Notes under the pieces: model-generated
Databases searched by the model: none
Seen by the model: the letters and a program-made list of their open reading frames with translations, nothing else
Told to the model about the DNA's origin: nothing
DNA from: Bacilli bacterium
GTDB lineage: Bacteria > Bacillota_I > Bacilli_A > RF39 > UBA660
Reading direction: 5' to 3'
Assembly (NCBI GenBank): GCA_017435465.1
Contig: JAFSEX010000005.1
Location: 134,793-198,792 of the forward strand
DNA: 64,000 bases
Part shown: positions 4,372 through 21,741 of the stretch, piece by piece
Numbering within the stretch: the stretch's first letter is position 1
Layout: every line of letters starts with the position of its first letter
Made by a program: the position numbers and the translations under genes

Positions 4372-5304
4372 ATGTCATTTACTACAATTGTTAAAAATGA
4401 AGTATCAAAATTAGAATGTGATAAAAATGAATTTATTTCAGAACTATGTGGATTTTTAATTAATAGTTCAATAATTATTGATAATAAAATAATTATTACA
4501 ACTGAGAATGCAAGTATAGCGCGTAGATATTTTAGTCTAATTAAAAAACTATATAATATAGTTCCAAAAATTACTGTTCGTAGACAATATAATTTCAATA
4601 GAAATAATTCATATATTTTAGAATACATTGATGATAAGCATACTATACTAAACGACTTATCACTAATTGAAAACAATCAAATTAAAACTTTACCTAATGA
4701 ATATTTAATTAGTGATGATGAAGAAATTAAAGCATACTTAAGAGGTTGCTTTATTTCTAGTGGTAGTGTAAATGATCCTAAAACTTCTAGATACCATCTA
4801 GAAATTTTAGTGAAAGAAAAAGGACAAGCTGATTTAATTAATAAGTTATTGAATCATTTAGAACTTAAAAGTAAAGTTTTAAATAGGTCAAAAGGTTATA
4901 TGATATATATAAAAGAATCTGAGAAGATTAGTGATTTTTTAAGAGTGATGAAAGCTTATTCATCAGTTTTATATTTTGAGGATATTAGAATATATAGAGA
5001 TCATGTAAATATGACAAATAGATTAAATAATTGTGAACAAGCAAATGTAGAAAAAACTATAAATACCGCATATAAACAAATTGAATATATTAATATAATT
5101 AAAGATAATGATGCATTAGATTTGTTAGATGAAAAAACTAAAGAAGTAATTAATTATAGATTAAAATATCCAGAATCATCATTACAAGAATTAAGCGATA
5201 TAATGAATTTAGAAACAAATATAAAACTAAGTAAATCCGGACTTAATCATAAATTTAGGAGTATAAAAGATTTAGCACTAAAACTAGAAAGTAGGGACAA
5301 GTAG
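4372..5304 (+). CDS. whiA: DNA-binding protein WhiA
   Basis: MSFTTIVKNEVS.., LAGLIDADG-derived middle domain and C-terminal HTH. ATG 4372 follows the agaggtga RBS. Lies directly downstream of yvcK. Confidence 0.9.
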   Translation: MSFTTIVKNEVSKLECDKNEFISELCGFLINSSIIIDNKIIITTENASIARRYFSLIKKLYNIVPKITVRRQYNFNRNNSYILEYIDDKHTILNDLSLIENNQIKTLPNEYLISDDEEIKAYLRGCFISSGSVNDPKTSRYHLEILVKEKGQADLINKLLNHLELKSKVLNRSKGYMIYIKESEKISDFLRVMKAYSSVLYFEDIRIYRDHVNMTNRLNNCEQANVEKTINTAYKQIEYINIIKDNDALDLLDEKTKEVINYRLKYPESSLQELSDIMNLETNIKLSKSGLNHKFRSIKDLALKLESRDK

Positions 5305-5305
5305 T

Positions 5306-5824
5306 ATGATAAATTTATATATAGATTTTGATGGTGTAATAATGAATACAATTGAAGTGGGATATAAAAAGATTACTGATAGCGGAAAAGAAATAAATGA
5401 AGAAACTTGTACAGAAATGTATAGTAATCTTAATTGGAAAGTATTTATAAATAAAGAATGTTCTGAGATTAATAATTCAATCGAATGTATTCAAAAAATA
5501 ATAGATAGTAATATGTTTAACATAAATATATTATCACACGTAAATTCCTTAGAAGAAGCAATTGCTAAAATAGAATATATTAGAAAATATTTTAAAGATA
5601 TTACTTTTATTCCTGTGCCAAAGAAAATTTCAAAAACAAAAATGGTACATACAAAAGATGCAATACTAATTGATGATTTTGCTGGTAATTTAAGAGAATG
5701 GACAAAGGCTGGAGGAATTGGTGTTAGATTTTCCGAAAAATTAAATAGTAAAGGATTTTATGTTATTAATCATTTAGATCAAATAATAGATATAGTAAAC
5801 AATGAGGTGAATATTTATGGATAA
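5306..5824 (+). CDS. HAD-superfamily hydrolase, 5'(3')-deoxyribonucleotidase-like
   Basis: N-terminal IDFDGV (the DxDG HAD motif I) and C-terminal ILIDDF..NL..W...GG. Confidence 0.45.
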   Translation: MINLYIDFDGVIMNTIEVGYKKITDSGKEINEETCTEMYSNLNWKVFINKECSEINNSIECIQKIIDSNMFNINILSHVNSLEEAIAKIEYIRKYFKDITFIPVPKKISKTKMVHTKDAILIDDFAGNLREWTKAGGIGVRFSEKLNSKGFYVINHLDQIIDIVNNEVNIYG

Positions 5825-6683
5825 GAATTATGATATATTATCTATTTTAGAAAGTAAACAAATTGATTTAGATATGTTTATTATGTTAATCTTTGAAAAT
5901 TATCAAAAAAGAAAAAAAGAAGGTAATTTATATTCAAAAGATAATTATATTCCACAAAATATTATTAAAGCATATTATTCTGAAATAGATAATCCAAGAT
6001 TTGATAGTTTAGTTAATAAGTTTAAAAACAATTATATTAAAAATGAGAACGAAATAGAAAATGTTCATGAAAAATGTGAAAGGGAAGGACTAGAAGTTGC
6101 ATACGATTATATTCATAATGAAAAGAGAATGAATAATATTAATATTTATACGGTTTTAAGATTGCATCAATTAATTTATTCAAAAGCACCACATCCAGAA
6201 TTTGGGGGCAAATTAAGAAATCAACCCATTTTTTTACCTAATAGTGGAGTAGAAACGGAAGATTGGAGTTTTATTCCTCAAAAATTAAATGAATTATATT
6301 TACCAACACAGGATTTAATAAAAAGGGGATTACAACTTAAAAATGATAAAATAAGTAATATTGATAATATCATAGAATATATAGATGAATGTGTAGAACT
6401 AAAATGTAAATTAATTAAAATGCATCCATTTTTAGATGGGAATGGAAGATCAATAAGAGCATTTACAAATTTGTTATTTATTATTGCGGACATTCCACCA
6501 ATATATATAAAAGCTAGAGAAAGAGAAGAATATGGCAAAGTAATGAATATGGCAATAGTAGATGGTGATTTGACACAAATTAAAAGATTTTACTATTATA
6601 AAATATGTGATTCAATATATGAATTAGATATAAAACCAAAATTATCACAAGAAGTGGATGAAAGTGTTAGAAAAAAGTCTTAG
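5817..6683 (+). CDS. Fic-domain protein (AMPylase family)
   Basis: Canonical Fic motif HPFLDGNGRSIR. Confidence 0.8.
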   Translation: MDKNYDILSILESKQIDLDMFIMLIFENYQKRKKEGNLYSKDNYIPQNIIKAYYSEIDNPRFDSLVNKFKNNYIKNENEIENVHEKCEREGLEVAYDYIHNEKRMNNINIYTVLRLHQLIYSKAPHPEFGGKLRNQPIFLPNSGVETEDWSFIPQKLNELYLPTQDLIKRGLQLKNDKISNIDNIIEYIDECVELKCKLIKMHPFLDGNGRSIRAFTNLLFIIADIPPIYIKAREREEYGKVMNMAIVDGDLTQIKRFYYYKICDSIYELDIKPKLSQEVDESVRKKS

Positions 6684-8916: not shown

Positions 8917-10215
8917 TTATTTATTTTTTAAACTTTTATTAACTAATTTATAATGATGTAGAGTAACATATAAAACATTCACTATAGTAGCAATTATTAA
9001 TGGATACATTCCAATTCTAAGTAAAGATAATCCAAATAATAATATACATTTAATTATAATTCCTATTAGGGTTGCACTAAAGGCATCACGAGCTTTATTC
9101 ATTGCTTGCAAAGCACTTGTTAAAGGACCTTGAATATAGAATATTAAAAAGAATGGAGCTAAAACTCTTAAATAATTTACACCTTCAGTAGTGTTATAAA
9201 ATAATTTTAAGAAAAATTTAGGGAAAATAATTAAAGCACTTGTAACAATTAATCCTATACTAAATGAAATTACGCACGCTTGTTTAATTTTTTCTTTAGC
9301 ATGTTTTATGTGTCCATTAGAATAACTTTTACTTATTACAGGAATTAACGCTTGAGAAATTGCCATCGCGAAAAATGAAGGCATTAATAATGTTTGAATA
9401 ACATATCCAGAAATTATTCCATATTCATAGGTTATAAATTTAGTAGAGTAGCCTACTAAAAGCATAGTTTGTGTAATGATTATTGGTTCTAAAAAATAAC
9501 CAAGTGATCCAACTAACCTAGAAGAAGTTGTTGGAATAGATATTTGCATTACATCTTTAATTATTGATTTATCAGGTTTTAATTCTTCTTTTGTAACTCT
9601 AAATTTTTTTGGTAAATAAAAATATAAAATTAAAATAGATAATAATTCACTAACAACATTATAAATAACTAATCCTGCTACTGCAAAATTTATACCTCGT
9701 TTTAAAAGAATAGGAGTAATAAAAATTATTATTATTAGTCTTATAATTTGTTCAAAAACATTTGATACAACGTGTGGAATCATTTTTTGTTTTCCAAAAA
9801 AATATCCACGAGCAATACTTGAAATACCAATAAAGGGTAGGGTAAATCCAATGCAGACAATTGGTAAATATGTATTACTATTTTTTAATAAAATATTTGA
9901 CATAAAAGGAGCAATTAAAAATATTAATAATATTAATAATGTATTAAATATTATTGATACGAAGATTGTAGAAAATATAATTTTTTTATTATTTGTTTTA
10001 TCCTCACTTACTAACTTTGAAATCGCAATTGGAAAACCCAGTTGTGATAGTGTAATAAATAAATTAAAAGTAGGAGTAATTAACATGTAAAGTCCAATAC
10101 CTTCGGTTCCAACAATTCTTGTGGTAAAAACTTTAATAATCATTCCTAAAATTTTAGTAAGAAACCCTCCTAATACTAAAATAAGTGTAGATTTTATAAA
10201 AATATTCTTATTCAT
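8917..10215 (-). CDS. MOP-superfamily flippase (MurJ/SpoVB-like)
   Basis: 432-aa polytopic membrane protein. The N-terminus ..LILVLGGFLTKILGMIIKVFTTRIVGTEGIGLYML is typical of SpoVB/MurJ-type polysaccharide/lipid II flippases. Confidence 0.7.
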   Translation of the reverse strand: MNKNIFIKSTLILVLGGFLTKILGMIIKVFTTRIVGTEGIGLYMLITPTFNLFITLSQLGFPIAISKLVSEDKTNNKKIIFSTIFVSIIFNTLLILLIFLIAPFMSNILLKNSNTYLPIVCIGFTLPFIGISSIARGYFFGKQKMIPHVVSNVFEQIIRLIIIIFITPILLKRGINFAVAGLVIYNVVSELLSILILYFYLPKKFRVTKEELKPDKSIIKDVMQISIPTTSSRLVGSLGYFLEPIIITQTMLLVGYSTKFITYEYGIISGYVIQTLLMPSFFAMAISQALIPVISKSYSNGHIKHAKEKIKQACVISFSIGLIVTSALIIFPKFFLKLFYNTTEGVNYLRVLAPFFLIFYIQGPLTSALQAMNKARDAFSATLIGIIIKCILLFGLSLLRIGMYPLIIATIVNVLYVTLHHYKLVNKSLKNK

Positions 10216-10319
10216 AGTTCACCTTCATATCTATAATAAATATATGAATGAATACTTGTGAAAATGTATATTCTATGTTATTATGTATATAGGTGAGTGA
10301 AAACTCATAAAATAAAAAA

Positions 10320-10356
10320 GGATACATTTGACTCTCGTGAATCAAATGCTTTCCCT
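10320..10356 (+). repeat. Left copy of an inverted repeat with a hairpin
   Basis: ggatacatttga-ctctcgtgaa-tcaaatgctttccct. Its reverse-complement partner is at 21007-21037. Internal 7-bp stem catttga/tcaaatg. Confidence 0.5.
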
Positions 10357-10364
10357 ATTCGGGT

Positions 10365-10404
10365 GCATCTGAAATCAACTATTGTTGAAATCAGATGCTT
10401 TTAT
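10365..10404 (+). terminator. Rho-independent terminator after the left repeat
   Basis: gcatctgaaatcaac/gttgaaatcagatgc hairpin (13 of 15 paired) followed by ttttatt. Confidence 0.55.
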
Positions 10405-10886
10405 TATTTAAATAGTAAGACTATTACTATAAAGATGTTTCATACTATAAGTAATACAAAATTGAAAAACTTATTTTAAATGAATTGTTAATAAATGAAA
10501 ATTAATTTTAATTTTTTCATATAAATAAAATCTTATTATCATTATAAATAAGAGAATATCATTTTCTCATTAATTTTATAATTATAAAATAATATTTTAT
10601 GCTTTAAATTTGTGTAAATAGTATATCTTGTTTATATTAAATGTTTGCAAAAACTATGACATTCCAAGATTTGCTACATATAAAATTTTATGATATTATA
10701 GACACACTAAAGGGATATTAGTTTTCTAAAATTTTAAAAAGAAAAATAAAGTGTTTATTTAATATATAATATAATTGTAAGTTATATTATGGTGATAATT
10801 TAATTATATAATTACTCGTATACTCGTACAAAACTAAAAATTTATATAAATACTAATTGTAACATAATAAGGAGTTCGATTTTACT

Positions 10887-12479
10887 ATGGATTTAATAAA
10901 ATATGACTTTGAAAGAAAAGTGATTAATGATCTTAAAAAATATGATATGAAATATAATTTAAAAGAATTAAAAAAAATATATTGTGAATTTATTAAAATA
11001 ATAAACAATTCAAAAAACCATAGTAATATTGTTCGGTTCCATAAAAGAATTACTTACACTTATAGCAATATGAAATATGATAATTTTTACAATTTTTATT
11101 CCAAAAAAATTAATCGACTACAATTTGAAAAAAACAATAAAACAATACAAAAATTCAAAAATAAATATATTAAAACTTGTGATTTGTTATTTGATTATTT
11201 TCAAAAATTTTCTAGAAACAATAGTGATAATAAGTATTTATTGTATTTAAAACAAAATTATAAAATAAGTAAAGATGAATATTATATTAAATTTTATAAT
11301 AACTTTAAAGTAGATGTATTTGTTGAGAATAAAAAAATAATGGTCTCTTTTTCTAATATTTATGATTTAATGGATTTAATAAATTCCCATAGTAATAAAG
11401 AATATATATATCATAAATTTACAAAAAAAATAAATGAATATGAAAAAAGATTTAAAAAACACATTGTTTCCATTATTAATAACAATTTGTGTATTGAAAA
11501 TTATTTTTCAAATATTTTGACTGAAAACAATATAAATTATAACTGTTTATGTAATATAAAGACAATTATAAAAAGAAGTGAAATATTAAATATGTATGTT
11601 TCATATAAGAAAAAAATATTGAAAAATGATAATTTATTTCAAATTGAGCTATTCTCATATAATTATTATTATAATATTAATTTTAAATTAGAAAATATTC
11701 TAGAAGTATTTTCATTGTTTGGAGAAAATTACATAAGCAATATTAAAAATAAATTACAGAATAGTATTATTATTGATAATACATTGAATAATAAAGGATT
11801 AACCATTAGTAATTTATCTGGTAATGGATTTATATTAATCAAAAACCTTAATACTATTGAGAATATTTTTGTTACGGTACATGAATTGGGTCATTTAATG
11901 TATAATTATTATATTGATAACAAATTTATGACTTCTAAAGAAATTTTAATTTCAGAAATATCTGCCATTTTAAATGAAATTCTATTAAATGATTATTTGG
12001 TTAAAAACAATTTATCGAATAATATTTACTTTTTAGATAGTGTAATGAAAATATTAGTTAATGGTATAATAGAATTTGAATTTTTAGAGGACATTTATTT
12101 ATACCACAACAATGATTATTCTTATATTAAAGAAAAATATTATGAAATAACAAAAAATCTTTATAATGAAGAAGTTCATATAAATAAAGATAATATTGAT
12201 TTTATTATTGACAATAATATATATAATGACATATATCCATTACGTTATATTGTCGCGTTAATAATTTCAATAAATATATTTAAAAATATACAAGAAGATT
12301 CAAATTATATAAATAAGTATTTTAAATTTATAAAACAATCTTCTTCTGTTAACAGTATTGATGAAGCATTAAAAATTTTAAATATTAATTTAAAACAAAA
12401 AAAAGTTTATGAAAATATGATTAGTTATCTATATAATATTATTAATCATTGTATTATTTCTGAAAAAAACACTATGTAA
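10887..12479 (+). CDS. M3B-family oligoendopeptidase F-like metallopeptidase
   Basis: VHELGHLMY zinc motif with downstream EISAILNE (HExxH...E), 530 aa. Extremely Asn/Lys/Ile/Tyr-rich. Confidence 0.7.
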   Translation: MDLIKYDFERKVINDLKKYDMKYNLKELKKIYCEFIKIINNSKNHSNIVRFHKRITYTYSNMKYDNFYNFYSKKINRLQFEKNNKTIQKFKNKYIKTCDLLFDYFQKFSRNNSDNKYLLYLKQNYKISKDEYYIKFYNNFKVDVFVENKKIMVSFSNIYDLMDLINSHSNKEYIYHKFTKKINEYEKRFKKHIVSIINNNLCIENYFSNILTENNINYNCLCNIKTIIKRSEILNMYVSYKKKILKNDNLFQIELFSYNYYYNINFKLENILEVFSLFGENYISNIKNKLQNSIIIDNTLNNKGLTISNLSGNGFILIKNLNTIENIFVTVHELGHLMYNYYIDNKFMTSKEILISEISAILNEILLNDYLVKNNLSNNIYFLDSVMKILVNGIIEFEFLEDIYLYHNNDYSYIKEKYYEITKNLYNEEVHINKDNIDFIIDNNIYNDIYPLRYIVALIISINIFKNIQEDSNYINKYFKFIKQSSSVNSIDEALKILNINLKQKKVYENMISYLYNIINHCIISEKNTM

Positions 12480-12502
12480 ATTATTAAATATAATAAAATC
12501 TA

Positions 12503-12531
12503 TTGACAAAGCTTTAATTTATCATTATAAT
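12503..12531 (+). promoter_or_regulatory. Consensus sigmaA promoter for the sORF
   Basis: TTGACA (12503-12508), exactly 17 nt, TATAAT (12526-12531). Confidence 0.7.
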
Positions 12532-12554
12532 CCAATGATAAGGAGGGCTAATAT

Positions 12555-12644
12555 ATGATAAAATTTATCAAATCTTTATTTTTTAAGAAATTAGATAAAA
12601 ATGATTTAGAATTATTGGCTATTTGTGAGACACATAGATCATAA
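12555..12644 (+). CDS. 29-aa small peptide, candidate precursor/scaffold peptide (not in the ORF track)
   Basis: ATG at 12555, 7 nt after aggaggg. Translation is MIKFIKSLFFKKLDKNDLELLAICETHRS*. It has its own consensus promoter and a downstream hairpin, and lies immediately upstream of the enzyme operon. Confidence 0.55.
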   Translation: MIKFIKSLFFKKLDKNDLELLAICETHRS

Positions 12645-12660
12645 TCTAAATTGTGATTTG

Positions 12661-12690
12661 GACTGTATCAAATAGCGATACAGTCTTTTT
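12661..12690 (+). terminator. Hairpin/partial terminator after the sORF
   Basis: gactgtatc-aaatagc-gatacagtc followed by ttttt. It lies 36 nt before the next gene's start. Confidence 0.65.
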
Positions 12691-12725
12691 GGATTATTAG
12701 ATTTATGTAATGGAGGTAATAAAAA

Positions 12726-14675
12726 ATGAAAATTATGGATTTAAAAGATGCTACTTCAATTTCTGGAGGAAAAGCATCTGGATTAGCACTGTTGAATAAG
12801 ATGATGGTTCCAGTTCCTTCTGGATTTGTAATTAATGACACATTGAGTTTAAATTATGATAACAATGATATATATTTAATTCAACAATATTTAAAAAAAC
12901 TTGATTCATCAAAGAAATTAGCAGTAAGATCATCAGCATGTGCTGAAGATGGTATTAATAAATCGTTTGCTGGTATATTTGAAACTGAATTAAATGTAAA
13001 TAATGACATTGAAAGTGTTTTGAGAGCTATCCAAAAAGTTAATGCAAGTGCTACAACTGATGTTGTAAAAGCATATTCAAATAATGAAAGACAAATAATG
13101 AATATTGTAATACAGGAAATGGTTGAACCAAAAATTGCAGGTGTATTATTTTCTGACGCAATGGATATTAATGGCGATAATGTTATACTATTTGAATGTG
13201 TTGAGGGACTTGCTGATAAATTGGTAAGTGGGGCAGCAGAACCAGCACAAATAATAATTAAAGTTAAAAACAATGAGATAGATGAAACAAGTATAAGAGT
13301 AGAAGGAAATCTTTTAGATTTGAGCACATTAAAAAATATATTCCCTTTTGTTAATAAAATTAAAAAAATAAGTGATAGACCACTTGATATTGAATGGTGT
13401 ATTGATAAAAACGGGAATCCATATTTTGTACAAGCACGGCCTATTACTTCAACAGTATTTATTAATAAAACAACTGAAAATTCTGGAATAGTTGCTTCAA
13501 GAGGCTATGCGGAAGGTGAAACTTATGTAATTGATGAAAATCAATCGGATGAAGAAATAAAAAAAGAAATTGATAATTTTCCAGAAGGAGCAATTCTTGT
13601 TGCAGGAGTAACAGAAACATTATATATGCCAGCAATAAAAAAAGCAAAAGGAATTATTACAGAAGAAGGTTCAGCATTATCACATGCTGCTATTGTTTCA
13701 AGAGAGTTAGGAATACCATGTATCGCTGGGTACAAAAATGCTATTAATTTATTTCCTACTGGTACTAAAATAGTTCTAGATGCTTCAAATGGTAAAGTTA
13801 TATCAAATGGTATTGAAAATACATTAAATACCGAAAAAGGTTTTGAATTTGGAGAATTATATTGTTTTGATAATGCACATAGGGTTGATTTTGATAATTT
13901 TAATGTATTTTTTGAATCAACTTATGGCGGATTAATGTTACATATGAATAGTGAAAATGCTACTCCTAAAAATATGGAAAAAGTAGAAAAATATGCTAGA
14001 ACAATGTTTAATAGTTCACCAGAACAACATTTTGATGATAAATATTTATGGTATTTAGAAATAGAACGATTTAAAAAATTACCTTTTTATAATGAAATGA
14101 ATCAAAAAATGATGGAAATTGTAGAAAATAAAGACTCTATTATGCTTGAAACATTTTATAATGAGTCATTAAATATGTTAAGTGATTTAGTAAATTACAA
14201 ACAAAATGGCGCAAATGAAAAAGAAAAGTTAATCATTGATGAAATTGGTGCGGCTACTAATTTAATTTTAGATGCAATGTTGCCATTAGGTTACGCTTTA
14301 AGACAATGCTATTTTGATTCAATTAGCTTATTAAAAAAGTATAATTTAAATTTTAATGATTTATTTACTAATAGAAATTTAAACTTATCAGATGAAGAAT
14401 TAATCAAAATAAGAGATTTCTTATTTAGCGTATCTACAAATAGAAATGAAGTTTATGAAAAAATATGCAATATTGGTGCAACATCCCCAGAATATTTTGA
14501 ACTTAGAGATGGAGAAATAAGAAAAGCAAGTAATTATGATAATGATGCTAATATTGATACATTTTATAATTCTTTAACATATACTGATTTTGAAAATATT
14601 AGGTTAATAATGCAACGATATTTTTCTAAAAAAAAAAGTAACAATTCTTTAGTTTATGCTAGACATTCTAGGTAA
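12726..14675 (+). CDS. PEP-utilising enzyme family protein (ATP-grasp PPDK_N domain plus swivel phospho-His domain plus unassigned C-terminal domain)
   Basis: SGGKASGLALLNK..VPVPSGFVI, LAVRSSACAEDG..SFAGIFET (PPDK_N/ATP-grasp) and EEGSALSHAAIVSRELGIPCIAG (mobile His domain). About 290 C-terminal aa carry no motif I recognise. Confidence 0.8.
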   Translation: MKIMDLKDATSISGGKASGLALLNKMMVPVPSGFVINDTLSLNYDNNDIYLIQQYLKKLDSSKKLAVRSSACAEDGINKSFAGIFETELNVNNDIESVLRAIQKVNASATTDVVKAYSNNERQIMNIVIQEMVEPKIAGVLFSDAMDINGDNVILFECVEGLADKLVSGAAEPAQIIIKVKNNEIDETSIRVEGNLLDLSTLKNIFPFVNKIKKISDRPLDIEWCIDKNGNPYFVQARPITSTVFINKTTENSGIVASRGYAEGETYVIDENQSDEEIKKEIDNFPEGAILVAGVTETLYMPAIKKAKGIITEEGSALSHAAIVSRELGIPCIAGYKNAINLFPTGTKIVLDASNGKVISNGIENTLNTEKGFEFGELYCFDNAHRVDFDNFNVFFESTYGGLMLHMNSENATPKNMEKVEKYARTMFNSSPEQHFDDKYLWYLEIERFKKLPFYNEMNQKMMEIVENKDSIMLETFYNESLNMLSDLVNYKQNGANEKEKLIIDEIGAATNLILDAMLPLGYALRQCYFDSISLLKKYNLNFNDLFTNRNLNLSDEELIKIRDFLFSVSTNRNEVYEKICNIGATSPEYFELRDGEIRKASNYDNDANIDTFYNSLTYTDFENIRLIMQRYFSKKKSNNSLVYARHSR

Positions 14676-14688
14676 TAGGATAATTATT

Positions 14689-15678
14689 ATGACAAAATAT
14701 ATATTTAATGATAACACTAAACTTATTTTTATAAAGAACAATTATATTTTAATTCAAAATAATAATAAAAAGATAAAAGAAAAACTTGATGAGAATTTTT
14801 ATAATATGTTGTTTAAAGTTCAAAAAAACAATTATATTTTTTCTACTGATTTAAAATTTTTCACAGAAGAACAATTAAAGTTTTTATATGACAAATCGGT
14901 AATAAAAAAATTGAGTCCAATATCCGAAAAATATATCAACACTAGATATGAAAAATATCAAATATATTTGGAAAATATATTTTCGGATGCAAAAAAAATT
15001 GATTATATAAAAAATAATAACCAAAAAAAAATTTTATTTGTTGGCGCAGGTGGAGTTTGTACAGCAATAATCGACTATCTCATTTCTGTCGGATTTAATA
15101 GTTATGGAATTATTGATTTTGATATTGTAGAAACAACAAATTTTAATAGACAATTTAAATATAAGGAAACTGATGTTGGGAGTTTAAAAGTAAGTAAAAT
15201 AAAATCAAATCTAAATGAACAATATTCTGGATTAACAATTTCAACATATAATAAAAAAATCTGTTCTTCAAATGACCTTGATTATATTGTCGGTGATTAT
15301 AATCCTGACTTCATTGTCTGTGCAGCCGACACACCTATATTTTTGATTCAAAAATATATTGCTGAAGTATGTTTAAAAAGAAATATTGCTTGTATTTTCG
15401 GAGGAGTAGGTCAAACTAAGGGTGTGTTTGGACCACTATTATACAACAAAAAAGGGTTTAATAAATATTTAAAAAAAATTAATAATGTTTTATGTTCTTT
15501 AGAAGGTGTTTTTCCGTGTAAAGGATCATTTGGAATAACAAATTCTTTGATATCAAATTATATGGCAAAAGATATTATATTTTATATGATGAATAAAAAG
15601 AAAAAAGTAACCTCATTAAATAAAGAATGTGAAATTGATTTTGATAGGAATGTAATTTATGAAAAAGAAAGATATTAA
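14689..15678 (+). CDS. ThiF/E1-like adenylyltransferase (MccB/PaaA-like) with an N-terminal extension
   Basis: ILFVGAGGVCTAIIDYLISVGF..GIIDFDIVETTNFNRQ is a Rossmann/E1 signature starting near aa 115. The preceding ~110 aa are an extra domain. The start is uncertain (ATG 14689 or 14656). Confidence 0.75.
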   Translation: MTKYIFNDNTKLIFIKNNYILIQNNNKKIKEKLDENFYNMLFKVQKNNYIFSTDLKFFTEEQLKFLYDKSVIKKLSPISEKYINTRYEKYQIYLENIFSDAKKIDYIKNNNQKKILFVGAGGVCTAIIDYLISVGFNSYGIIDFDIVETTNFNRQFKYKETDVGSLKVSKIKSNLNEQYSGLTISTYNKKICSSNDLDYIVGDYNPDFIVCAADTPIFLIQKYIAEVCLKRNIACIFGGVGQTKGVFGPLLYNKKGFNKYLKKINNVLCSLEGVFPCKGSFGITNSLISNYMAKDIIFYMMNKKKKVTSLNKECEIDFDRNVIYEKERY

Positions 15679-16681
15679 TGATTTAATTAAAAATTATCAA
15701 GTAAACGAATCACCATTAATGTTATATGATTTATCACAATTAAAACTAAACATTCAAAAATTATTATTCTTAAAAACTAAATATAATGTTGAGTTTCTTT
15801 TTCCAGTTAAAGCATTTCCTGAATATAAAGTTTTAAAATTGTTTTTCGACTTTGGGTTTGGTTATGATATAGCTAATGAAAATGAATTTAACACAATTGA
15901 TAAAATCATAAACAAAGATACATTAATTTCTTTTAATGGTACTCCAACTATATCTAACAAAAAAGAATATAATAATATTATATATAATTTAAATAGTTTA
16001 AATGAATTAACTAACAAAACATTTTATAATGGAATAAGAATAAATACTTATATAAAAAACAAAACTGAATTTAGTAAATTTGGGATACCTATTGAAAAAA
16101 TAAAATCTATTAATAATAAAAAAATAAAATCTATTAGTTTTCATTTTTATGAGGAAAATAAAAAAAAGAAACTTAAGCATATTTTAAATTTTGCAAGAAA
16201 ATGTATAACTATATTTAAAAATCTAGATTATATTAATTTTGGTGGTAATTGGGATGTCATAGATGTTAGCAACTTCGAGAGAAACATAATTGAAATCAGA
16301 AAATATATAGATAATAAAATAAAAATTATATTTGAAGTTGGTGAAAATTGGTTTGAAAATTGTGGATATTTAGTTACCAAAGTTATAAGTACAAATGAGA
16401 TATCTAACAAAAAAATATTTTATATAAATGCTGGAAAAGATAGTGTTGCAAAATGGTCAGTTTTGAAACCTGTTAATTTGGAATATGAAAAAGAAGATAA
16501 GTTTACTTATATCATTTCTGGCAATAGTTGTTATGAGAAAGACATTTTTACTGTAACAAATAAAAAAGTTAATATATCAATTAATGATAAGATAGTTTTT
16601 GTTGGATTAAATGGATATTCTTATGCTTGGTGTAAAGAATTTAACGGTTCAAATTCTCCAGAGGTGATATTTTATGAATAG
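15659..16681 (+). CDS. Fold-type-III PLP-dependent decarboxylase (Orn/DAP/Arg decarboxylase family)
   Basis: FPVKAFP (PLP-Lys), GFGYDIANENEF and GNSCYEKDIF motifs. Its start overlaps the upstream stop by 20 nt. Confidence 0.75.
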   Translation: MKKKDINDLIKNYQVNESPLMLYDLSQLKLNIQKLLFLKTKYNVEFLFPVKAFPEYKVLKLFFDFGFGYDIANENEFNTIDKIINKDTLISFNGTPTISNKKEYNNIIYNLNSLNELTNKTFYNGIRINTYIKNKTEFSKFGIPIEKIKSINNKKIKSISFHFYEENKKKKLKHILNFARKCITIFKNLDYINFGGNWDVIDVSNFERNIIEIRKYIDNKIKIIFEVGENWFENCGYLVTKVISTNEISNKKIFYINAGKDSVAKWSVLKPVNLEYEKEDKFTYIISGNSCYEKDIFTVTNKKVNISINDKIVFVGLNGYSYAWCKEFNGSNSPEVIFYE

Positions 16682-17888
16682 TTATTATATTTATAAAAAA
16701 GATGAAATAAAGTATTTAGAAAATGAATATAAAGTTTCTTTACCACATAAATTATCTCTTAATGATTATATTGATTTTAAAAGAAATATATTTATTAATA
16801 TTCAAGGAAAATATAATATAACTGTAACAAATAAGAATTCAGTAGAATATGAAAATATCTTTACGAATAATCATATTTCATATAAATATTCTTATACAAG
16901 GTATGATAGCTATATTAATTATTCAAATTTTTGTAATGACTTTTATAAATTAGAAAAAAATAACCATTATAAGTCAAAGGTTTTTTTTACTAATAGTGGC
17001 ATGAGCGCAATAACATCTTTATTGTTAGCAATAAATACAGTTTTAGATGATTTTTCATTTTTATTACCAGATGAAGATATTTATTTTGAAACTTATGATT
17101 TTTATAATAAATATATAAAAGATAAAAATAATATTAATAAAAACATATTGTATATTGATACAATTGCGAAAAAATTCGATATTAAAAGATATATAAATCT
17201 TATAAATAATAATGATAATATTTTTGCTGTAGTAATTGATACTACTTGTTTTTTACCAAATGAGTTGAATAAACTGATTTCGAGCGTTATTAACAAAAAT
17301 TTATTGTGTGTTTTAGTTAGAAGTCATACTAAGTTAGATATGATGGGTTCTGAAATATCTAGTTTGGGTTCACTAGTATATTTAATACCACGCAAAACAG
17401 ATAATGAAAAATTTCAAATAATAAAAAGAATTATTTCAGAAAGTTATTATCTATTAGGTAAATTTGGAGCATTGTGTCTCCCTGATAAATTTCCAGAATT
17501 TATTTTTGATAAGAAATTTAAGAAAATAAATAATCAAAGAATAAAGCAAATAGAGAATAATAATTATAAATTATATACTTTTTTAAAAGATAATATTAAA
17601 AAAGGAAAAATAATATTACCAAAACATCAAAAATTTATCTTGTATGTTTTGAATGAAAAATTAGATAATGAATGTCAAAGTAATATTATAGAAAATAGTA
17701 TAAAATTATTTGTGAACAAAAATGAAAAACTATTTTATGCTTGTAGTTTTGGTTTTGATTATATAGCTCTTGATTCTTACTATGATATAAACGAAAAAAA
17801 TTATGTTATGAGAATATCCATGAATGATGATGAAAATAATGTTGATATTTTTAATGAAATTAAGGAGTTTATTAATGATAACTTTTAG
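16674..17888 (+). CDS. Fold-type-I PLP enzyme, Cys/Met-metabolism (CGS/CBL)-like
   Basis: FFTNSGMSAITS and VRSHTKLDMMGSE (the S-x-T-K PLP-lysine context). ATGAATAG start/stop overlap with the upstream gene. Confidence 0.5.
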   Translation: MNSYYIYKKDEIKYLENEYKVSLPHKLSLNDYIDFKRNIFINIQGKYNITVTNKNSVEYENIFTNNHISYKYSYTRYDSYINYSNFCNDFYKLEKNNHYKSKVFFTNSGMSAITSLLLAINTVLDDFSFLLPDEDIYFETYDFYNKYIKDKNNINKNILYIDTIAKKFDIKRYINLINNNDNIFAVVIDTTCFLPNELNKLISSVINKNLLCVLVRSHTKLDMMGSEISSLGSLVYLIPRKTDNEKFQIIKRIISESYYLLGKFGALCLPDKFPEFIFDKKFKKINNQRIKQIENNNYKLYTFLKDNIKKGKIILPKHQKFILYVLNEKLDNECQSNIIENSIKLFVNKNEKLFYACSFGFDYIALDSYYDINEKNYVMRISMNDDENNVDIFNEIKEFINDNF

Positions 17889-19152
17889 TATAGATACATT
17901 ACCTTTATCAAAAAATATTATTGATTCTAATGATTATTCTAGTAAAATAATATATTCTGCTACAAGCGATACTTTGTTTAAATATAGTTTAAAGAAAAAC
18001 AAAATAATTAAAAATTCTTGCAGTTACTATAAATATAGTAATAATAATAAAATTTTAACCATTAAAATTAGAGATGATTTATATTTTTATAACGGAGATA
18101 AAGTTACAGCAAACGATTATTATCATACTTTTAGACATATATTAAATTCAAAAACGCACATAGGGATAATATTTAGACATTTCTTTACTGATATAAAAAT
18201 ATTAGATGATTGTACATTTCAATTAGTAAATAAAACGAAAAATGATAAATCTTATGAAATATTATCAATTTATAGTGCTTGCTGTTTAAAAAACAATTAT
18301 ACTAGCGGTGCTTATTATATAGAAAAAACGGGGAAAAATTTTATTATATTAAAACGTAATGAATTTTATAGAGAAAAAATTCATAATAAAGATGCAGAAG
18401 TAATTAAGTTTATTTTAACTGATGGTCTAAATGATTATAAATTATTTAATAACAAGATAATTCAAATTACCAATAATACTATGTGTGATATCAATAATAT
18501 AGATAAATATAATTATATAAGAGAGAATAACTACATTTATTTAAATATCATTTTTTCTAATGAAATGATGAGAAATAGATATAAAAAAATCAGAAAAATC
18601 ATATCTGATATAATAGATAAAGATAAAATTGCTAATATGTTAGATAATAAGTATGATATTAATGAGTCTTTTATTGTAAATAATAGTATAACTAATATTA
18701 AGCGAAAAAAAATCAATATAAATATTGATACAACAAAGTCCATTAAACCCTTAACTTTGGGGTATAACAATTTTTATCCAAATAAAATAATTGCTGAAGA
18801 AATAAAAAAACAGTTAGAAGCAGTTGGATTTAAAATAGATTTAGTTGAAAATAAATTTAATATTAAAAATACATGTGATTTAAATATTACTCTTAACCAC
18901 TTAGAATACATTACAGAATCATCTATAATAAATGGTTCTTACTTTTTCGTGATTTTAGAAAAAAATTCAATTTATAAAACTATTCTTAAAATGTATAATG
19001 TAACACATAAAAAATATTTGTTGGATTTAATTAATAAAAAATTATTAAAATTAAAATATAAAATTCCGTTATTAAAAATGAATGGATACTATTTAAAATC
19101 AGATAAATATAATAAATTTAATTATATTGAACTTAATTTTAATGAAATGTAG
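17875..19152 (+). CDS. Family-5 solute-binding-protein-like protein without signal peptide or lipobox
   Basis: ATG 17875 lies 7 nt after AAGGAG. ..ATSDTLFKYS..LTIKIRDDLYFYNGDKVTANDYYHTF resembles the SBP_bac_5 (OppA/DppA/NikA) N-lobe. The N-terminus MITFSIDTLPLSK has no hydrophobic leader. Confidence 0.6.
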   Translation: MITFSIDTLPLSKNIIDSNDYSSKIIYSATSDTLFKYSLKKNKIIKNSCSYYKYSNNNKILTIKIRDDLYFYNGDKVTANDYYHTFRHILNSKTHIGIIFRHFFTDIKILDDCTFQLVNKTKNDKSYEILSIYSACCLKNNYTSGAYYIEKTGKNFIILKRNEFYREKIHNKDAEVIKFILTDGLNDYKLFNNKIIQITNNTMCDINNIDKYNYIRENNYIYLNIIFSNEMMRNRYKKIRKIISDIIDKDKIANMLDNKYDINESFIVNNSITNIKRKKININIDTTKSIKPLTLGYNNFYPNKIIAEEIKKQLEAVGFKIDLVENKFNIKNTCDLNITLNHLEYITESSIINGSYFFVILEKNSIYKTILKMYNVTHKKYLLDLINKKLLKLKYKIPLLKMNGYYLKSDKYNKFNYIELNFNEM

Positions 19153-19163
19153 GTGATTTATAT

Positions 19164-20831
19164 ATGATTGAAATAGCAGCATCACGTGTTAAAAAAAATT
19201 TTGGTTTCAAAAATGTTTTTGACTCTTTTGATTTAGAGGTTTCTACTGGTGAAAGAGTTGGTTTAATTGGCCCAAACGGATGTGGTAAATCTACTTTATT
19301 TAAACTAATAACGAAAGAAGAAACACCTGACTCTGGAATAATTACAATTAGAAAAGGTGCTAAAATAGGCTTTCTTTCACAAATGCCTTTTATTGATAAT
19401 AATGAAACGACAGTAAGGGAACTATTAAATTCAACTTTTAAAGATACTTATGATATTGCGACAGAAATGAAACGATTAGAAGAAAAAATGGGAATTGCTG
19501 ATAGTAAAGAATTAGAAAAGATATTAGACAGGTATGGTGTTTTACAACAAAGATTTGTTGATTTGGATGGTTATTCTATTGATTCAAAAATAAATGAAAT
19601 ATGTAATAAATTTAAAATTAATCATAATTTATTAGATAGACCATTTTTAAGTTTATCTGGTGGTGAAAAAACAATAGTCGGTTTTGCAACAATTATGCTC
19701 TCAAATCCAGATATTTTGCTTCTTGATGAACCAACCAATAATTTAGATATTGATACTTTAGAGTGGTTAGAAAAATATTTAAAAAATTATAGTGGAACAA
19801 TTATTATGAGCTCACATGATAGATATTTCTTAGATAAAGTAGCAAATAAAATAGTTTTAATCGAAAGGGGAAAATCAGAAATATTTTATGGGAATTATTC
19901 CTATTATCTAGAAGAAAACGAAAGAAGAACTTTATCTGAGTTTGAACAATATAAAGATCAACAAAAGATGATTGAGGCAATGAAAAAGAAAATAAAGCAA
20001 TTACAAGAATTCGGACGACTTGCTGCACCAAGCGGAGAATCATTTTTTAAAAGAGCAGCAAGTATACAAAAAAGGTTAGATAAAATAGAACTGTTAAATA
20101 AACCAGAAGAACAAAAAGAAATACCGTTAAATTTCCAAATGAATAACAGATCAGGGAAACAAGTGTTATTAATAAATAATCTTGATTTGAATATTGGTGA
20201 TAAAAATTTACTTAAAGATACTGAATTTAGTATTTATTTTAAAGATAAAATATGTTTGATGGGTAAAAATGGTTGTGGAAAATCAACATTAATAAAACAT
20301 ATAATTAATTTATATAATAATTCTGATAAAAGTGATGATGCAAATGTTAAAATAGGTAGCAATGTTTTAATAGGATATATCCCACAAATTATTGATTTTA
20401 AAAATAATAATGCAACTGTATTAGATGTTGCTAGAAAATATTTTAATGGAACTGAAACATATTTGAGAGCATCATTAGCAAAATTTATGTTTAATGGTGA
20501 TAATGTATTTAAAAAAGTAGGAAATCTTTCCGGTGGTGAAAAAATTCGATTAAAATTATTTGAACTTATGCAACAAAATATTAATTTTTTAATAATGGAT
20601 GAGCCAACTAATCATATTGATATAACAACCAAGGAAGTGTTGGAAAATTCCTTAAATGAATTTCAAGGAACAATTTTATTTATATCACATGATAGATATT
20701 TTATTAATGAACTGGCAAAAAAGATATTGTGCATTGATAATCAAACAATTACTGAATATTTAGGTAATTATGATGATTATAAAATAATAAAAGAAAAACA
20801 ATTAATTAGAGAAAAGAAATCTAGTAAATAA
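19164..20831 (+). CDS. ABC-F family ATPase (two ABC domains, no TMD)
   Basis: Two Walker A motifs (GPNGCGKST; GKNGCGKST), two LSGGE signatures, a charged inter-domain linker and SHDRYF motifs. Confidence 0.85.
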   Translation: MIEIAASRVKKNFGFKNVFDSFDLEVSTGERVGLIGPNGCGKSTLFKLITKEETPDSGIITIRKGAKIGFLSQMPFIDNNETTVRELLNSTFKDTYDIATEMKRLEEKMGIADSKELEKILDRYGVLQQRFVDLDGYSIDSKINEICNKFKINHNLLDRPFLSLSGGEKTIVGFATIMLSNPDILLLDEPTNNLDIDTLEWLEKYLKNYSGTIIMSSHDRYFLDKVANKIVLIERGKSEIFYGNYSYYLEENERRTLSEFEQYKDQQKMIEAMKKKIKQLQEFGRLAAPSGESFFKRAASIQKRLDKIELLNKPEEQKEIPLNFQMNNRSGKQVLLINNLDLNIGDKNLLKDTEFSIYFKDKICLMGKNGCGKSTLIKHIINLYNNSDKSDDANVKIGSNVLIGYIPQIIDFKNNNATVLDVARKYFNGTETYLRASLAKFMFNGDNVFKKVGNLSGGEKIRLKLFELMQQNINFLIMDEPTNHIDITTKEVLENSLNEFQGTILFISHDRYFINELAKKILCIDNQTITEYLGNYDDYKIIKEKQLIREKKSSK

Positions 20832-20852
20832 TTATTGAACTACTAGATTTCT
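20815..20852. terminator. Bidirectional terminator hairpin
   Basis: agaaatctagta / tactagatttct is a perfect 12-bp stem with a 14-nt loop. It overlaps the ABC-F stop codon. Confidence 0.6.
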
Positions 20853-20918
20853 TTGTTAACACATTACTGCTTAAATATTTATATTATATTATTTTATTTA
20901 TAAATAATGATTGAATTA

Positions 20919-20969
20919 TTAATATATATCAACAAAATTTGATATATAAAAAATTTCTCTTTTACTCAT
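20919..20969 (-). CDS. 16-codon sORF (MSKREIFYISNFVDIY) behind a strong SD
   Basis: On the minus strand: aggaaggtggtgg-tttt-ATG. It lies downstream of the right inverted-repeat copy and a TATAAT-like box. Coding status is unproven. Confidence 0.3.
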   Translation of the reverse strand: MSKREIFYISNFVDIY

Positions 20970-21006
20970 AAAACCACCACCTTCCTAGTATCAATAGATA
21001 AAAGAA

Positions 21007-21037
21007 AGGGAAAGCATCTGACTTTTCAAATGTATCC
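21007..21037 (-). repeat. Right copy of the inverted repeat with a hairpin
   Basis: The minus strand reads ggatacatttga-aaag-tcagatgctttccct. The stem catttga/tcagatg is kept through a U-A to U-G change. Confidence 0.5.
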
Positions 21038-21212
21038 ATATACATTATATAATATTATTGTTAACTGGTAAATAACTTTCACGAAATTTAGCGAACTTTT
21101 GTTCTGATGACAAAAAAATTAAATTTATATCAATACAAAAACTTATTAACCCCTTTAAAAATAAGTCTTTTTAATATATAATGTAAATATAAGAAAGGAA
21201 TAAAGTGGTAGT

Positions 21213-21491
21213 ATGAAAAAATTTAAAACTATCGAAGATTTATATAAAACAGTTTTCCCTGCACTAAAATCTAGAAAAGAAGATTTACATAGAGAAAAAT
21301 ATGTAATGGTAACTGAAGATGATATTTGGAATTATTTAGTTGAAACGAATTGGATAGATTCAGAAAATTTAGAATTATCAACAATAATTGATGATATTTT
21401 AAATGTAGATGGATATAAAGTAAGTCAATATGTTAAAGATAAAATGAATTCAAAAGAAAGATATTTATATTTTAAAGGTAATGAAGAATAA
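21213..21491 (+). CDS. ComN-like post-transcriptional regulator
   Basis: 92-aa protein immediately upstream of secDF, as B. subtilis comN (yrzD) is. ..EDDIWNYL...W motif. Confidence 0.5.
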   Translation: MKKFKTIEDLYKTVFPALKSRKEDLHREKYVMVTEDDIWNYLVETNWIDSENLELSTIIDDILNVDGYKVSQYVKDKMNSKERYLYFKGNEE

Positions 21492-21741
21492 TTTAAAATC
21501 TATTTTATTTTCAATTGTTTTCACAATATTATTTATCTTAATGATACTTATTGAATTACCAAGTTTATTAAACTATATAAAATATAAAGACATTTTAAAT
21601 ATAGTTCTATCATCATCACTAATTTTAATTGCAGCAACTGGATTATATATATCAATAATATATGGAATAGTAAAAATTTTAAATACTAAAAGTAAGAAAA
21701 CTCGAGGAGGAAGTAAAAATGGCAAAAAAAAGAAAAAATAA
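21481..21741 (+). CDS. small membrane protein with a Lys-rich tail
   Basis: Two predicted TM helices. Overlaps the comN-like stop and the secDF start. Confidence 0.4.
   Translation: MKNNLKSILFSIVFTILFILMILIELPSLLNYIKYKDILNIVLSSSLILIAATGLYISIIYGIVKILNTKSKKTRGGSKNGKKKKK

Follow-up and report, generated by a model that had tools for sequence, protein, structure and literature searches.

Known peptide-modifying systems and the locus studied

In the microcin C operon, the gene order mccA, terminator, mccB was shown experimentally, together with an abundant short mccA transcript and minor read-through (PMC4231749). A similar arrangement was found in a 64,000-nt stretch from a Bacilli bacterium (assembly GCA_017435465.1, contig JAFSEX010000005.1, positions 134,793 to 198,792 of the forward strand), and this whole stretch is called the window below. 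The element under study is a short open reading frame (sORF) for a 29-aa peptide. It lies between a promoter of its own and a terminator-like hairpin, upstream of the genes of a phosphoenolpyruvate (PEP)-dikinase-like enzyme and a ThiF-type adenylyltransferase. The comparative data show this sORF to be a real, conserved peptide gene of the cluster, apparently transcribed separately, which most probably supplies the substrate (a precursor or scaffold) for peptide-modifying enzymes.

ThiF-type enzymes have been described in several pathways for peptides that are made on the ribosome and modified after translation (RiPPs). An N-terminal peptide-clamp domain, the RiPP recognition element (RRE), sets these RiPP-modifying enzymes apart from ThiF and MoeB (PMC12596934, PMC12250964). 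The binding of PaaP to PaaA in the pantocin A system depends on the N-terminal PaaP residues F4, L7, R10, and I11 (PMC12250964). IndF adenylates the C-terminal carboxylate, leading to macrocycle closure (PMC12150305). As far as the work of Johnson et al. 2024 is summarized in PMC12596934 and PMC12250964, the GrcA precursor has about 39 residues with a conserved C-terminal Gly-Arg-Cys, and a Glu35-Cys39 thiolactone is formed in a system with an RRE-ThiF. The known ThiF-RiPP chemistries are phosphoramidate, indolizidinone, thiolactone, cyclic imide, and indolylamide formation, and none of them comes with a PEP-utilizing enzyme (PMC12596934, PMC12250964, PMC12150305, PMC11256085). A search of the full-text literature returned no paper on a ThiF protein with a PEP-utilizing enzyme, on ThiF with ABC-F, or on the peptide motifs described here. 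The peptide with its cluster is most likely an uncharacterized RiPP-like family in gut Bacilli.

The sORF cassette in the window

The cassette is composed of the following features.

12503-12531, plus strand: promoter (12/12 match, unique in the 64-kb window)
12541-12547, plus strand: Shine-Dalgarno sequence of the sORF (AGGAGGG, read directly)
12555-12644, plus strand: sORF for the proposed precursor or scaffold peptide, with an N-terminal recognition part and a C-terminal -H-R-S core (comparative data)
12601-12654, plus strand: H1, predicted hairpin enclosing the sORF stop codon (folding)
12660-12691, plus strand: H2, intrinsic-terminator-like hairpin with U tract (scan, folding, compensatory changes)

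The promoter has TTGACA at 12503-12508, a 17-nt spacer, and TATAAT at 12526-12531, giving a sigma-70-type score of 12/12. It is the only exact TTGACA-17-TATAAT match on either strand of the window. Shuffled sequences give an expectation of 0.08, and 8 of 100 shuffles contained at least one exact match. Weaker promoter-like matches were at chance level (29 seen vs 23 expected) because the DNA here is only 17-29% GC. Among the promoter matches, the weight is carried by the perfect one alone. The Shine-Dalgarno sequence is 7 nt 5' of the ATG at 12555, and the sORF encodes MIKFIKSLFFKKLDKNDLELLAICETHRS and ends with TAA at 12642-12644. The promoter, the ribosome-binding site, and the 29-aa reading frame had all been proposed in a first-pass annotation of this DNA, and each was confirmed at its position. 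The N-terminal half of the peptide is amphipathic and Lys-rich, and the peptide has no hydrophobic membrane-spanning stretch and no export signal. No second copy of the sORF was found elsewhere in the window. A 7-codon ORF (MIRRANI, 12535-12558) overlaps the Shine-Dalgarno sequence and the start codon of the sORF; it begins 5' of the point where transcription should start, lacks its own Shine-Dalgarno sequence, and is probably meaningless.

The stem of H2 (12660-12686) has 10 pairs, 4 of them G-C, with a 7-nt loop, and is followed by TTTTT. The hairpin and its T5 tract had been noticed in the first-pass annotation; the stem was drawn there with 9 bp from 12661 and has 10 pairs from 12660. It had also been placed immediately before the enzyme genes, which was incorrect: it ends 35-40 nt before the ATG of the PEP-dikinase-like gene at 12726. 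Two terminator-like sites were found in the 2-kb region vs 0.2 expected, and H2 folded alone gave -13.4 kcal/mol (z = -4.0). Across the 9 alignable loci described below, the H2 stem is paired in 95.6% of the cells, and both partners are altered in 3 of the 10 pairs; one such pair reads A-U in four loci and G-C in another four. In L088, L095, L098, L102, and L103, the sORF is followed by a comparable hairpin whose tail is T-rich. The terminator structure is conserved.

The predicted H1 pairs codons 17-20 with the bases just 3' of the stop codon. It was rejected as a proven structure, since covariation is essentially nil (1 of 23 pairs changed on both sides).

Conservation of the cassette and the peptide family

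DNA was fetched around a spread of orthologues of the PEP-dikinase-like enzyme (PEP-like enzyme below), from 81% down to about 34% identity. Relatives in metagenomes were scanned for with a 5-sequence alignment of the C-terminal domain of this enzyme, and the peptide was looked up by exact match and by a profile search of 1.84 billion representative proteins. The loci carry handles such as L081. The cassette of promoter, Shine-Dalgarno sequence, 23-35-codon ORF, and hairpin adjoins orthologues of the PEP-like gene at about 15 loci, where the enzyme identity ranges from 78% to about 35%. The promoter hexamers of the sORF score 12/12 in L081, L083, L085, L091, and L096 and 11/12 in L088 and L098, with unrelated spacers. 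A GGAGG-like or purine-rich motif (AGAGG, GGGGG, AAGGA) is found 6-9 nt before the sORF ATG at every homologous locus. A RiPP precursor gene is by definition a short peptide gene inside an enzyme cluster and conserved with it, and this is what was found at these approximately 15 loci. The peptides are as follows.

Clade 1 (window, L081-L083, L089-L093): M[ILV]K[FIL][IV]KSLF[SF]KKLD[KE]NDLELLAICE[TA]HRS
L085: MLKFIKSLFSKKSKRLDKTDLELLAICETHRS
L086: MIKLIREYFNSRKVVKLDNIEKKLLESCEAQRT
L095: MIKFIKWIINSRRTVSLDAIEKELLQLCEAQRC
L099: MKSIAKTFKAKKVNVSLSEAKLLSMCATHRS
L102: MNKEQEITSTDLELLELVNTHRS
L103: MIKFIKSFFTKSEIKNIDAELASCAMSQRS
L096: MENKEVKTVEIESTTAAELDAVDVEILECSMTQRC
Clade 2 (L088, L104): MIKF[FI]K[KR]LFGIKEHAYATASIEKELDNVYF[ST]KRS
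L098 (candidate): MFAKVLAFLTRAFGHSSSVSKADLAALGILQHRRC

A related 23-35-codon ORF stands beside the PEP-like gene in every clade with a readable flank and a ThiF cluster. The first-pass annotation had proposed looking for conservation of the sORF, above all of its C-terminus, at homologous pairs of PEP-utilizing and ThiF-like genes, and the outcome was positive in every clade with a readable flank. These peptides were already among the gene-caller predictions for hundreds of contigs, in every case unnamed. By exact look-up, one peptide variant is on 260 contigs and another on 153, and at least one locus is from a human gut metagenome. The profile search added peptides ending in ...CESHRS, ...VYFSKRC, and ...VYFTKRT. 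No family for the peptide was found in Pfam or NCBIfam.

A profile built from three clades recovered the L095 (E 2e-12) and L099 (E 0.004) peptides among 2835 sORFs and missed the sORFs of L096 and L098. These two are candidate members by position, cassette signals, and their R-C end. Ends of the R[STC] type occur in only about 0.4% of background sORFs.

Selection on the peptide and the C-terminal rule

Codon changes were counted between pairs of loci. Between the window and L085, 8 changes in the sORF are synonymous and 3 non-synonymous, compared with 163 and 253 in the PEP-like gene. Between L085 and L091, the sORF has 12 synonymous and 2 non-synonymous changes, and the PEP-like gene has 162 and 248. 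At conserved residues of the PEP-like enzyme, the codons differ at 34-47% of positions. Between clades the DNA diverges, and the reading frame, the Shine-Dalgarno motif, and the stop codon right after R-[S/T/C] are kept. The excess of synonymous changes, together with the retention of these three elements across diverged DNA, indicates that selection acts on the translated product of the sORF. On this comparative evidence, the sORF is a real gene that is part of the cluster and under protein-level selection.

The conserved C-terminus can be written as [H/Q/K/R]-R-[S/T/C]-stop. The penultimate Arg(-1) is invariant across all compared peptides, the last residue is solely Ser, Thr, or Cys, and His, Gln, Lys, or Arg occupies position -2. 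The terminal residue is swapped even within clade 1 (HRS/HRT) and within clade 2 (KRS/KRT/KRC). Cys at -5 or -6 (Cys24 in the window peptide) is common and is absent from clade 2 and L102. Glu(-4) (Glu25) and Thr(-3) (Thr26) vary, with Glu(-4) replaced by Ala, Met, Phe, or Asn in other clades. The N-terminal motif MIKFIK-x-LF is shared by several clades. The Cys, Thr, and Ser of the end CETHRS had been put forward as nucleophiles. The position of the terminal Ser is indeed universal as S/T/C; the same does not hold for Cys24, which is missing in two clades, or for Thr26, which varies. The equivalence of Ser, Thr, and Cys fits a side-chain nucleophile or a phospho-acceptor, and the C-terminal Arg-(S/T/C) is for this reason the probable business end of the peptide.

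Two cyclizations were considered as general reactions and rejected. A GrcB-like (thio)lactone from Glu(-4) to the terminal residue is contradicted by the replacement of Glu(-4) in L088, L096, L099, L102, and L103. A thiolactone from Cys(-5) to the C-terminus, like that of autoinducing peptides, is contradicted by the absence of this Cys from clade 2 and L102.

Neighboring genes in the cluster

The genes around the cassette in the window are all co-directional. They are listed below with the basis of each assignment; PLP stands for pyridoxal phosphate.

10887-12479, plus strand: M3 (PepF-like) oligoendopeptidase with HELGH motif (NCBIfam pepF E 7e-20, below the curated cut-off)
12726-14675, plus strand: PEP-dikinase-like enzyme with ATP-grasp PPDK_N domain, phospho-His swivel domain, and a C-terminal domain of about 285 aa (Pfam, invariant residues)
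14689-15678, plus strand: MccB/PaaA-like ThiF adenylyltransferase with an N-terminal peptide-binding (RRE-type) domain (PDB sequence matches, model, Foldseek)
15659-16681, plus strand: fold-III PLP decarboxylase-like protein of the ornithine/diaminopimelate/arginine family (nearest models carboxynorspermidine and diaminopimelate decarboxylases)
16674-17888, plus strand: 404-aa protein, weakly like Cys/Met-metabolism PLP enzymes, with invariant SHTKLD (Pfam E 0.005, below the cut-off)
17875-19152, plus strand: OppA/DppE-like family-5 solute-binding protein with no signal peptide (core member, in every ThiF-containing locus)
19164-20831, plus strand: ABC-F ATPase, ribosomal-protection-like (NCBIfam NF000355, 442.8 bits vs a cut-off of 380)

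The core gene set consists of the sORF, the PEP-like enzyme, ThiF, and the OppA-like protein. The best PDB sequence matches of the ThiF protein were MccB (E 1e-11) and PaaA. Its translation probably begins at M12 of an ORF opening at 14656. Its AlphaFold model has a mean confidence (pLDDT) of 89.9, and Foldseek matched the model to MccB with E 3e-21 over about 340 columns and to PaaA with E 3e-17, at full length including the N-terminal domain. Across the ThiF alignment, the nucleotide-binding residues and the catalytic residues of the adenylation motif are invariant. By this model, the protein has the MccB/PaaA fold and would be the RRE-bearing modifying enzyme that the definition of a RiPP precursor calls for.

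The OppA-like protein resembles OppA, DppE, and PrgZ and begins where the mature domains of those proteins start. It is assigned no signal peptide because of this coincidence, and it is presumed to be a cytoplasmic peptide binder. Both a ThiF of the RRE type and an oligopeptide binder in the cytoplasm require a peptide, and the clusters contained no second conserved sORF. The sORF product is for this reason the probable substrate of the cluster. The first-pass annotation had read the peptide as a RiPP precursor. This interpretation is supported by the codon-change pattern, the MccB/PaaA-like ThiF, the apparently cytoplasmic OppA-like protein, and the conserved promoter and hairpin, and it is the best-supported reading of the peptide from these comparisons.

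The PEP-like gene starts at ATG 12726 with its own GGAGG at 12713-12717. The enzyme keeps the catalytic His (invariant H320) and the ATP-grasp residues, and it belongs to a superfamily with rifampin phosphotransferase, PigC, and RedH. PDB sequence matches cover its N-terminal part alone. The C-terminal domain (residues 365-649, window 13818-14672) was modeled with pLDDT 87.4 as a small beta-sheet that leads into a long bundle of helices. Foldseek against PDB structures gave no match better than E 0.1 for this domain, Pfam has no family for it, and the plasmid and phage collections held no match. A contig profile scan with the full-length alignment of the enzyme returned only unrelated PEP-utilizing enzymes, which matched residues 1-360. 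By hhalign, the first 85 residues of the C-terminal domain (beta-beta-beta-alpha) have no similarity to the N-terminal domain of ThiF.

Frequent accessories are the decarboxylase-like, 400-aa PLP-like, and ABC-F genes (window, L081, L088, L096, L103, and L104); the decarboxylase-like gene is also found in L086 and L091. The profile of the 404-aa protein matched cystathionine beta-lyase, methionine gamma-lyase, and cystathionine gamma-synthase structures in the PDB at E 0.01-0.7. The ABC-F gene, co-located in the same six loci, is a candidate for self-protection. The M3 peptidase is confined to clade 1, where orthologues lie directly 5' of the sORF in L081 and L085, and it is a candidate leader or scaffold peptidase. 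Genes of radical S-adenosylmethionine (radical-SAM) enzymes, of the SPASM or B12 type, are accessories in L081, L085, L099, and L102; tblastn found no radical-SAM homologue anywhere in the 64-kb window. A gene with a class-I methyltransferase fold stands between the ThiF and decarboxylase-like genes in L086 (4191-4931) and L104 (5409-6137), and none is present in the window.

Proposed mechanism

Most transcripts from the consensus promoter would stop at the 12660-12691 hairpin, yielding an abundant short mRNA of about 150 nt. The enzymes would be expressed from transcripts that read through the hairpin, as for mccA and mccB. The terminator would then be leaky, and the peptide would be made in stoichiometric excess over its enzymes. 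The N-terminal domain of ThiF would bind the peptide, and ThiF would adenylate a carboxylate, most simply the C-terminal one, after the examples of MccB and IndF. The PEP-like enzyme, whose gene is the most tightly linked to the sORF, may act through its phospho-His on or next to the C-terminal residue, and the peptide would thus be modified at its C-terminal Arg-(Ser/Thr/Cys). Two options are conceivable for this enzyme. One is the phosphorylation of the side chain of the terminal residue. The other is carbonyl O-phosphorylation leading to an azoline-type cyclodehydration independent of YcaO, for which the dehydrative condensations of PigC and RedH offer a precedent. The signal-less OppA-like protein would hold the peptide. 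The product would be tailored and released by the two PLP-type enzymes, the M3 peptidase, and, at other loci, the radical-SAM or methyltransferase genes. By analogy with MccD and MccE, the aminopropylation enzymes of microcin C, the two PLP-type enzymes may resemble a pair for aminocarboxypropyl transfer and decarboxylation. The ABC-F gene would fit a product that targets translation.

We put forward a further proposal tentatively, as one with a somewhat less than even chance of being right. The PEP-like enzyme with its unprecedented C-terminal domain may be a new RiPP-modifying enzyme acting on the invariant Arg-(S/T/C), and with the ThiF and OppA-like proteins it may build a new class of translation-targeting, peptide-derived compounds, with ABC-F as the immunity factor, in Bacilli that are abundant in the human gut.

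If the sORF does supply the substrate, a 90-nt gene is the key to an uncharacterized peptide natural-product pathway. The pairing of an MccB-type adenylyltransferase with a PEP-dikinase-type enzyme, whose presumed substrate domain has no known structural relative, was not found in the searchable literature. The constant [H/Q/K/R]-Arg-[Ser/Thr/Cys] C-terminus would offer chemists a well-defined substrate together with an obvious series of mutants, and the linked ABC-F hints at the ribosome as the target. The family also holds a lesson for annotation: gene callers find the ORF yet leave it unnamed, and the cluster is uninterpretable without it. The peptide and its cluster are an abundant, experimentally tractable candidate for a new peptide-modification pathway.

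Comparison with the described systems

Of the known systems, microcin C is the one whose mode of action the cluster would resemble most. Both have a tiny precursor gene with strong signals of its own, followed by an intrinsic terminator (predicted in our case) and then by enzyme genes. The ThiF protein here is nearest to MccB in sequence and in fold, including the N-terminal peptide clamp, and the fold-III PLP decarboxylase recalls the N-terminal domain of MccE. The position of the methyltransferase-fold gene in L086 and L104 recalls the order mccB-mccD-mccE. Microcin C targets translation, and the ABC-F gene suggests a link to translation here too. However, the peptides here end in Arg-Ser/Thr/Cys and never in Asn. 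The succinimide and N-P phosphoramidate chemistry of microcin C is unavailable to them because it needs this C-terminal Asn. The cluster is thus not a member of the microcin C group, since the defining residue is absent. It also differs in having a PEP-dikinase-like gene after the terminator, which is found in no described mcc cluster, and a peptide of 23-35 aa with a conserved N-terminal part. No MccC exporter, MccF, or immunity gene of the MccE C-terminal-domain type was found among the cluster genes.

Pantocin A (PaaP/PaaA) and the IndA/IndF pair share with our cluster an RRE-ThiF acting on precursors of about 30 aa, and PaaA was the second-best structural match of the ThiF protein. The peptides here have a conserved N-terminus, M-I-K-F-I-K-x-L-F, to set beside the N-terminal binding residues of PaaP, and PaaP also begins with MIKF. 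In contrast to PaaP and IndA, the peptides here have no central Glu-Glu-Asn core and no C-terminal motif of the NWYFI type, and the partner enzymes are different.

The GRC-type radical-SAM RiPPs, within the published summaries cited above, share with these peptides an Arg followed by a terminal nucleophilic residue and an RRE-ThiF acting near the C-terminus. Their clusters, in the same summaries, contain radical-SAM enzymes, as do L081, L085, L099, and L102 with one gene each. The window peptide has a Glu 4 residues before the last, which can be compared with Glu35-Cys39 of GrcA as summarized. The Gly of that motif is absent here, however, and Glu(-4) is present in only some clades, which rules out a general Glu-to-terminal (thio)lactone of the summarized type. 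As summarized, the grc cluster has two radical-SAM genes plus a stand-alone RRE, an shp/rgg quorum-sensing operon, and a transporter, whereas radical-SAM genes are absent from the window and our cluster has none of the other three elements. The grc clusters as these sources present them contain no PEP-like enzyme, OppA-like protein, PLP enzymes, or ABC-F.

Alternative explanations

Several observations weigh against a substrate role of the peptide. In 14 of 15 loci, the sORF and the PEP-like gene share a strand, the sORF being directly 5', 50-107 nt upstream, with a hairpin between, and a cis-regulatory leader would look alike. In L092 and L095, the sORF has the PEP-like gene as its only partner and no ThiF gene was found within a distance of 9 kb; ThiF is therefore, in these data, not an obligatory neighbor of the sORF. 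In clade 1, hardly any base changes in the 3' half of the sORF or in the roughly 45 nt beyond it (window 12597-12654), not even at synonymous sites. The same stretch is kept in L081, L083, L085, and L091-L093, though the neighboring enzyme is only 62-78% identical. Because the near-invariance extends to synonymous sites, an RNA-level constraint acts on this half of the sORF within clade 1, besides the protein-level one. The N-terminal domain of ThiF has no sequence-level match to RRE/PqqD in Pfam, and its assignment comes from the fold match. No exporter gene was found in the cluster of the window. The L098 ORF was undetected by the hidden Markov model of the peptide, and its membership is suggested by context, the ...DL..L.I..HRRC end, and the rarity of R[STC] ends.

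It is unlikely, in our estimate, that the sORF is instead a cis-acting regulatory leader, in which the behavior of the ribosome, for instance a drug- or metabolite-dependent stall at -R-(S/T/C)-stop, would control the terminator and hence the PEP-like gene and the operon. The constant position upstream of the PEP-like gene, the pairs without a nearby ThiF, and the near-invariant 3' half of clade 1, where the predicted H1 encloses the stop codon, all agree with such a leader, as does the ABC-F gene in the operon. The PEP-like gene could in this case be an inducible phosphotransferase of the rifampin-phosphotransferase type, in keeping with its superfamily. The cassette also resembles known ribosome-dependent attenuators (the erm, cat, and ABC-F resistance leaders and tnaC) in that a short ORF, well provided with a Shine-Dalgarno sequence, precedes a terminator-like hairpin and the gene downstream, and it shares with TnaC the conserved C-terminal residues next to the stop codon. 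However, no alternative anti-terminator pairing was detectable. When folds of the nascent transcript are predicted, H1 and H2 form side by side, with no mutually exclusive structure and with the near absence of H1 covariation given above; a longer fold has an alternative long-range pairing that is not backed by conservation. Besides the C-terminus, conservation extends to the N-terminal MIKFIK..LF motif. The equivalence of S, T, and C at the last codon is chemically sensible and has no known rationale in ribosome stalling. Peptide-binding and peptide-modifying enzymes travel along with the sORF; the RRE-type ThiF and the apparently cytoplasmic OppA-like protein need a peptide, and the clusters offer no other conserved sORF.

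The L098 locus bears most directly on this question. A 35-codon candidate (...ADLAALGILQHRRC) at L098:4174-4281, minus strand, is inverted between the PEP-like and ThiF genes, convergent with the former and divergent from the latter. It has its own 11/12 promoter and its own 10-bp G+C-rich terminator, a hairpin that also sits just beyond the end of the PEP-like gene. A leader ORF should always lie upstream and on the same strand, which holds in the other 14 loci and not at this candidate. With its inversion to both neighbors and its own signals, the L098 cassette would have no cis action on the PEP-like gene there, and the inversion thus argues against a purely cis-acting leader. The cassette had been called stand-alone in the first-pass annotation, and in L098 this would hold literally if the candidate is genuine. 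A dual role of the sORF, as in mccA, would be compatible with its supplying the substrate.

Also improbable is that the peptide is a small partner of the PEP-like enzyme, either a phospho-acceptor or carrier through its terminal S/T/C or an activator subunit, or that it is an unmodified amphipathic toxin or signal. The PEP-like gene is the tightest and, in L092 and L095, the sole linkage of the sORF. Relays from phospho-His to Cys, Ser, or His are established chemistry in the related Enzyme I family of the phosphotransferase system. The amphipathic, Lys-rich N-terminal half would suit a toxin. On the other hand, the peptide has neither a membrane-spanning stretch nor an export signal, and no antitoxin-like or transporter gene is attached. 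In most clades its gene is found together with an MccB-like ThiF, a binder of the OppA type, and tailoring enzymes, in some cases also with a radical-SAM/SPASM maturase or M3 peptidase; such a gene set is that of a peptide-maturation cluster.

A chance ORF in AT-rich intergenic DNA, with a purely RNA element (terminator, small RNA, or riboswitch-like leader) being conserved, is effectively excluded on the sequence evidence: promoter-like hexamers and short ORFs are common at 17-29% GC, and nucleotide-level conservation is strong within clade 1, but across clades the DNA diverges while the amino-acid pattern, frame, Shine-Dalgarno sequence, and stop after R-[S/T/C] are kept, synonymous changes far exceed non-synonymous ones, and no Rfam family matched the 10000-22000 region at E up to 1.

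Minor observations

The sORF/PEP-like pairs of L092 (7741-9819) and L095 (5410-7543) have no OppA-like, PLP, or ABC-F gene in the available sequence, and the L092 pair is flanked by a YlqF-like GTPase gene and an RNase HII gene. Among the more distant PEP-like genes, L087 and L100 have no sORF. At L100:2928-9818, the PEP-like enzyme (37% identity) stands without sORF or ThiF beside three genes of the aminoacyl-tRNA-synthetase family and two Peptidase_S51 genes. At L101:6439-9863, the PEP-like gene (enzyme identity 34%) and the end of a radical-SAM gene overlap, and the latter is preceded by a different 42-codon ORF (...IVMSGRLY); this is possibly a peptide system in its own right that employs the same family of enzymes. 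In L081, a radical-SAM/SPASM gene (4872-6158) lies upstream of the M3 peptidase, where the window has about 670 nt of non-coding DNA (10216-10886). Elsewhere in the window, at 1987-2463 on the minus strand, a 158-aa ORF is very Cys-rich, with runs such as CCKK and CCCK.

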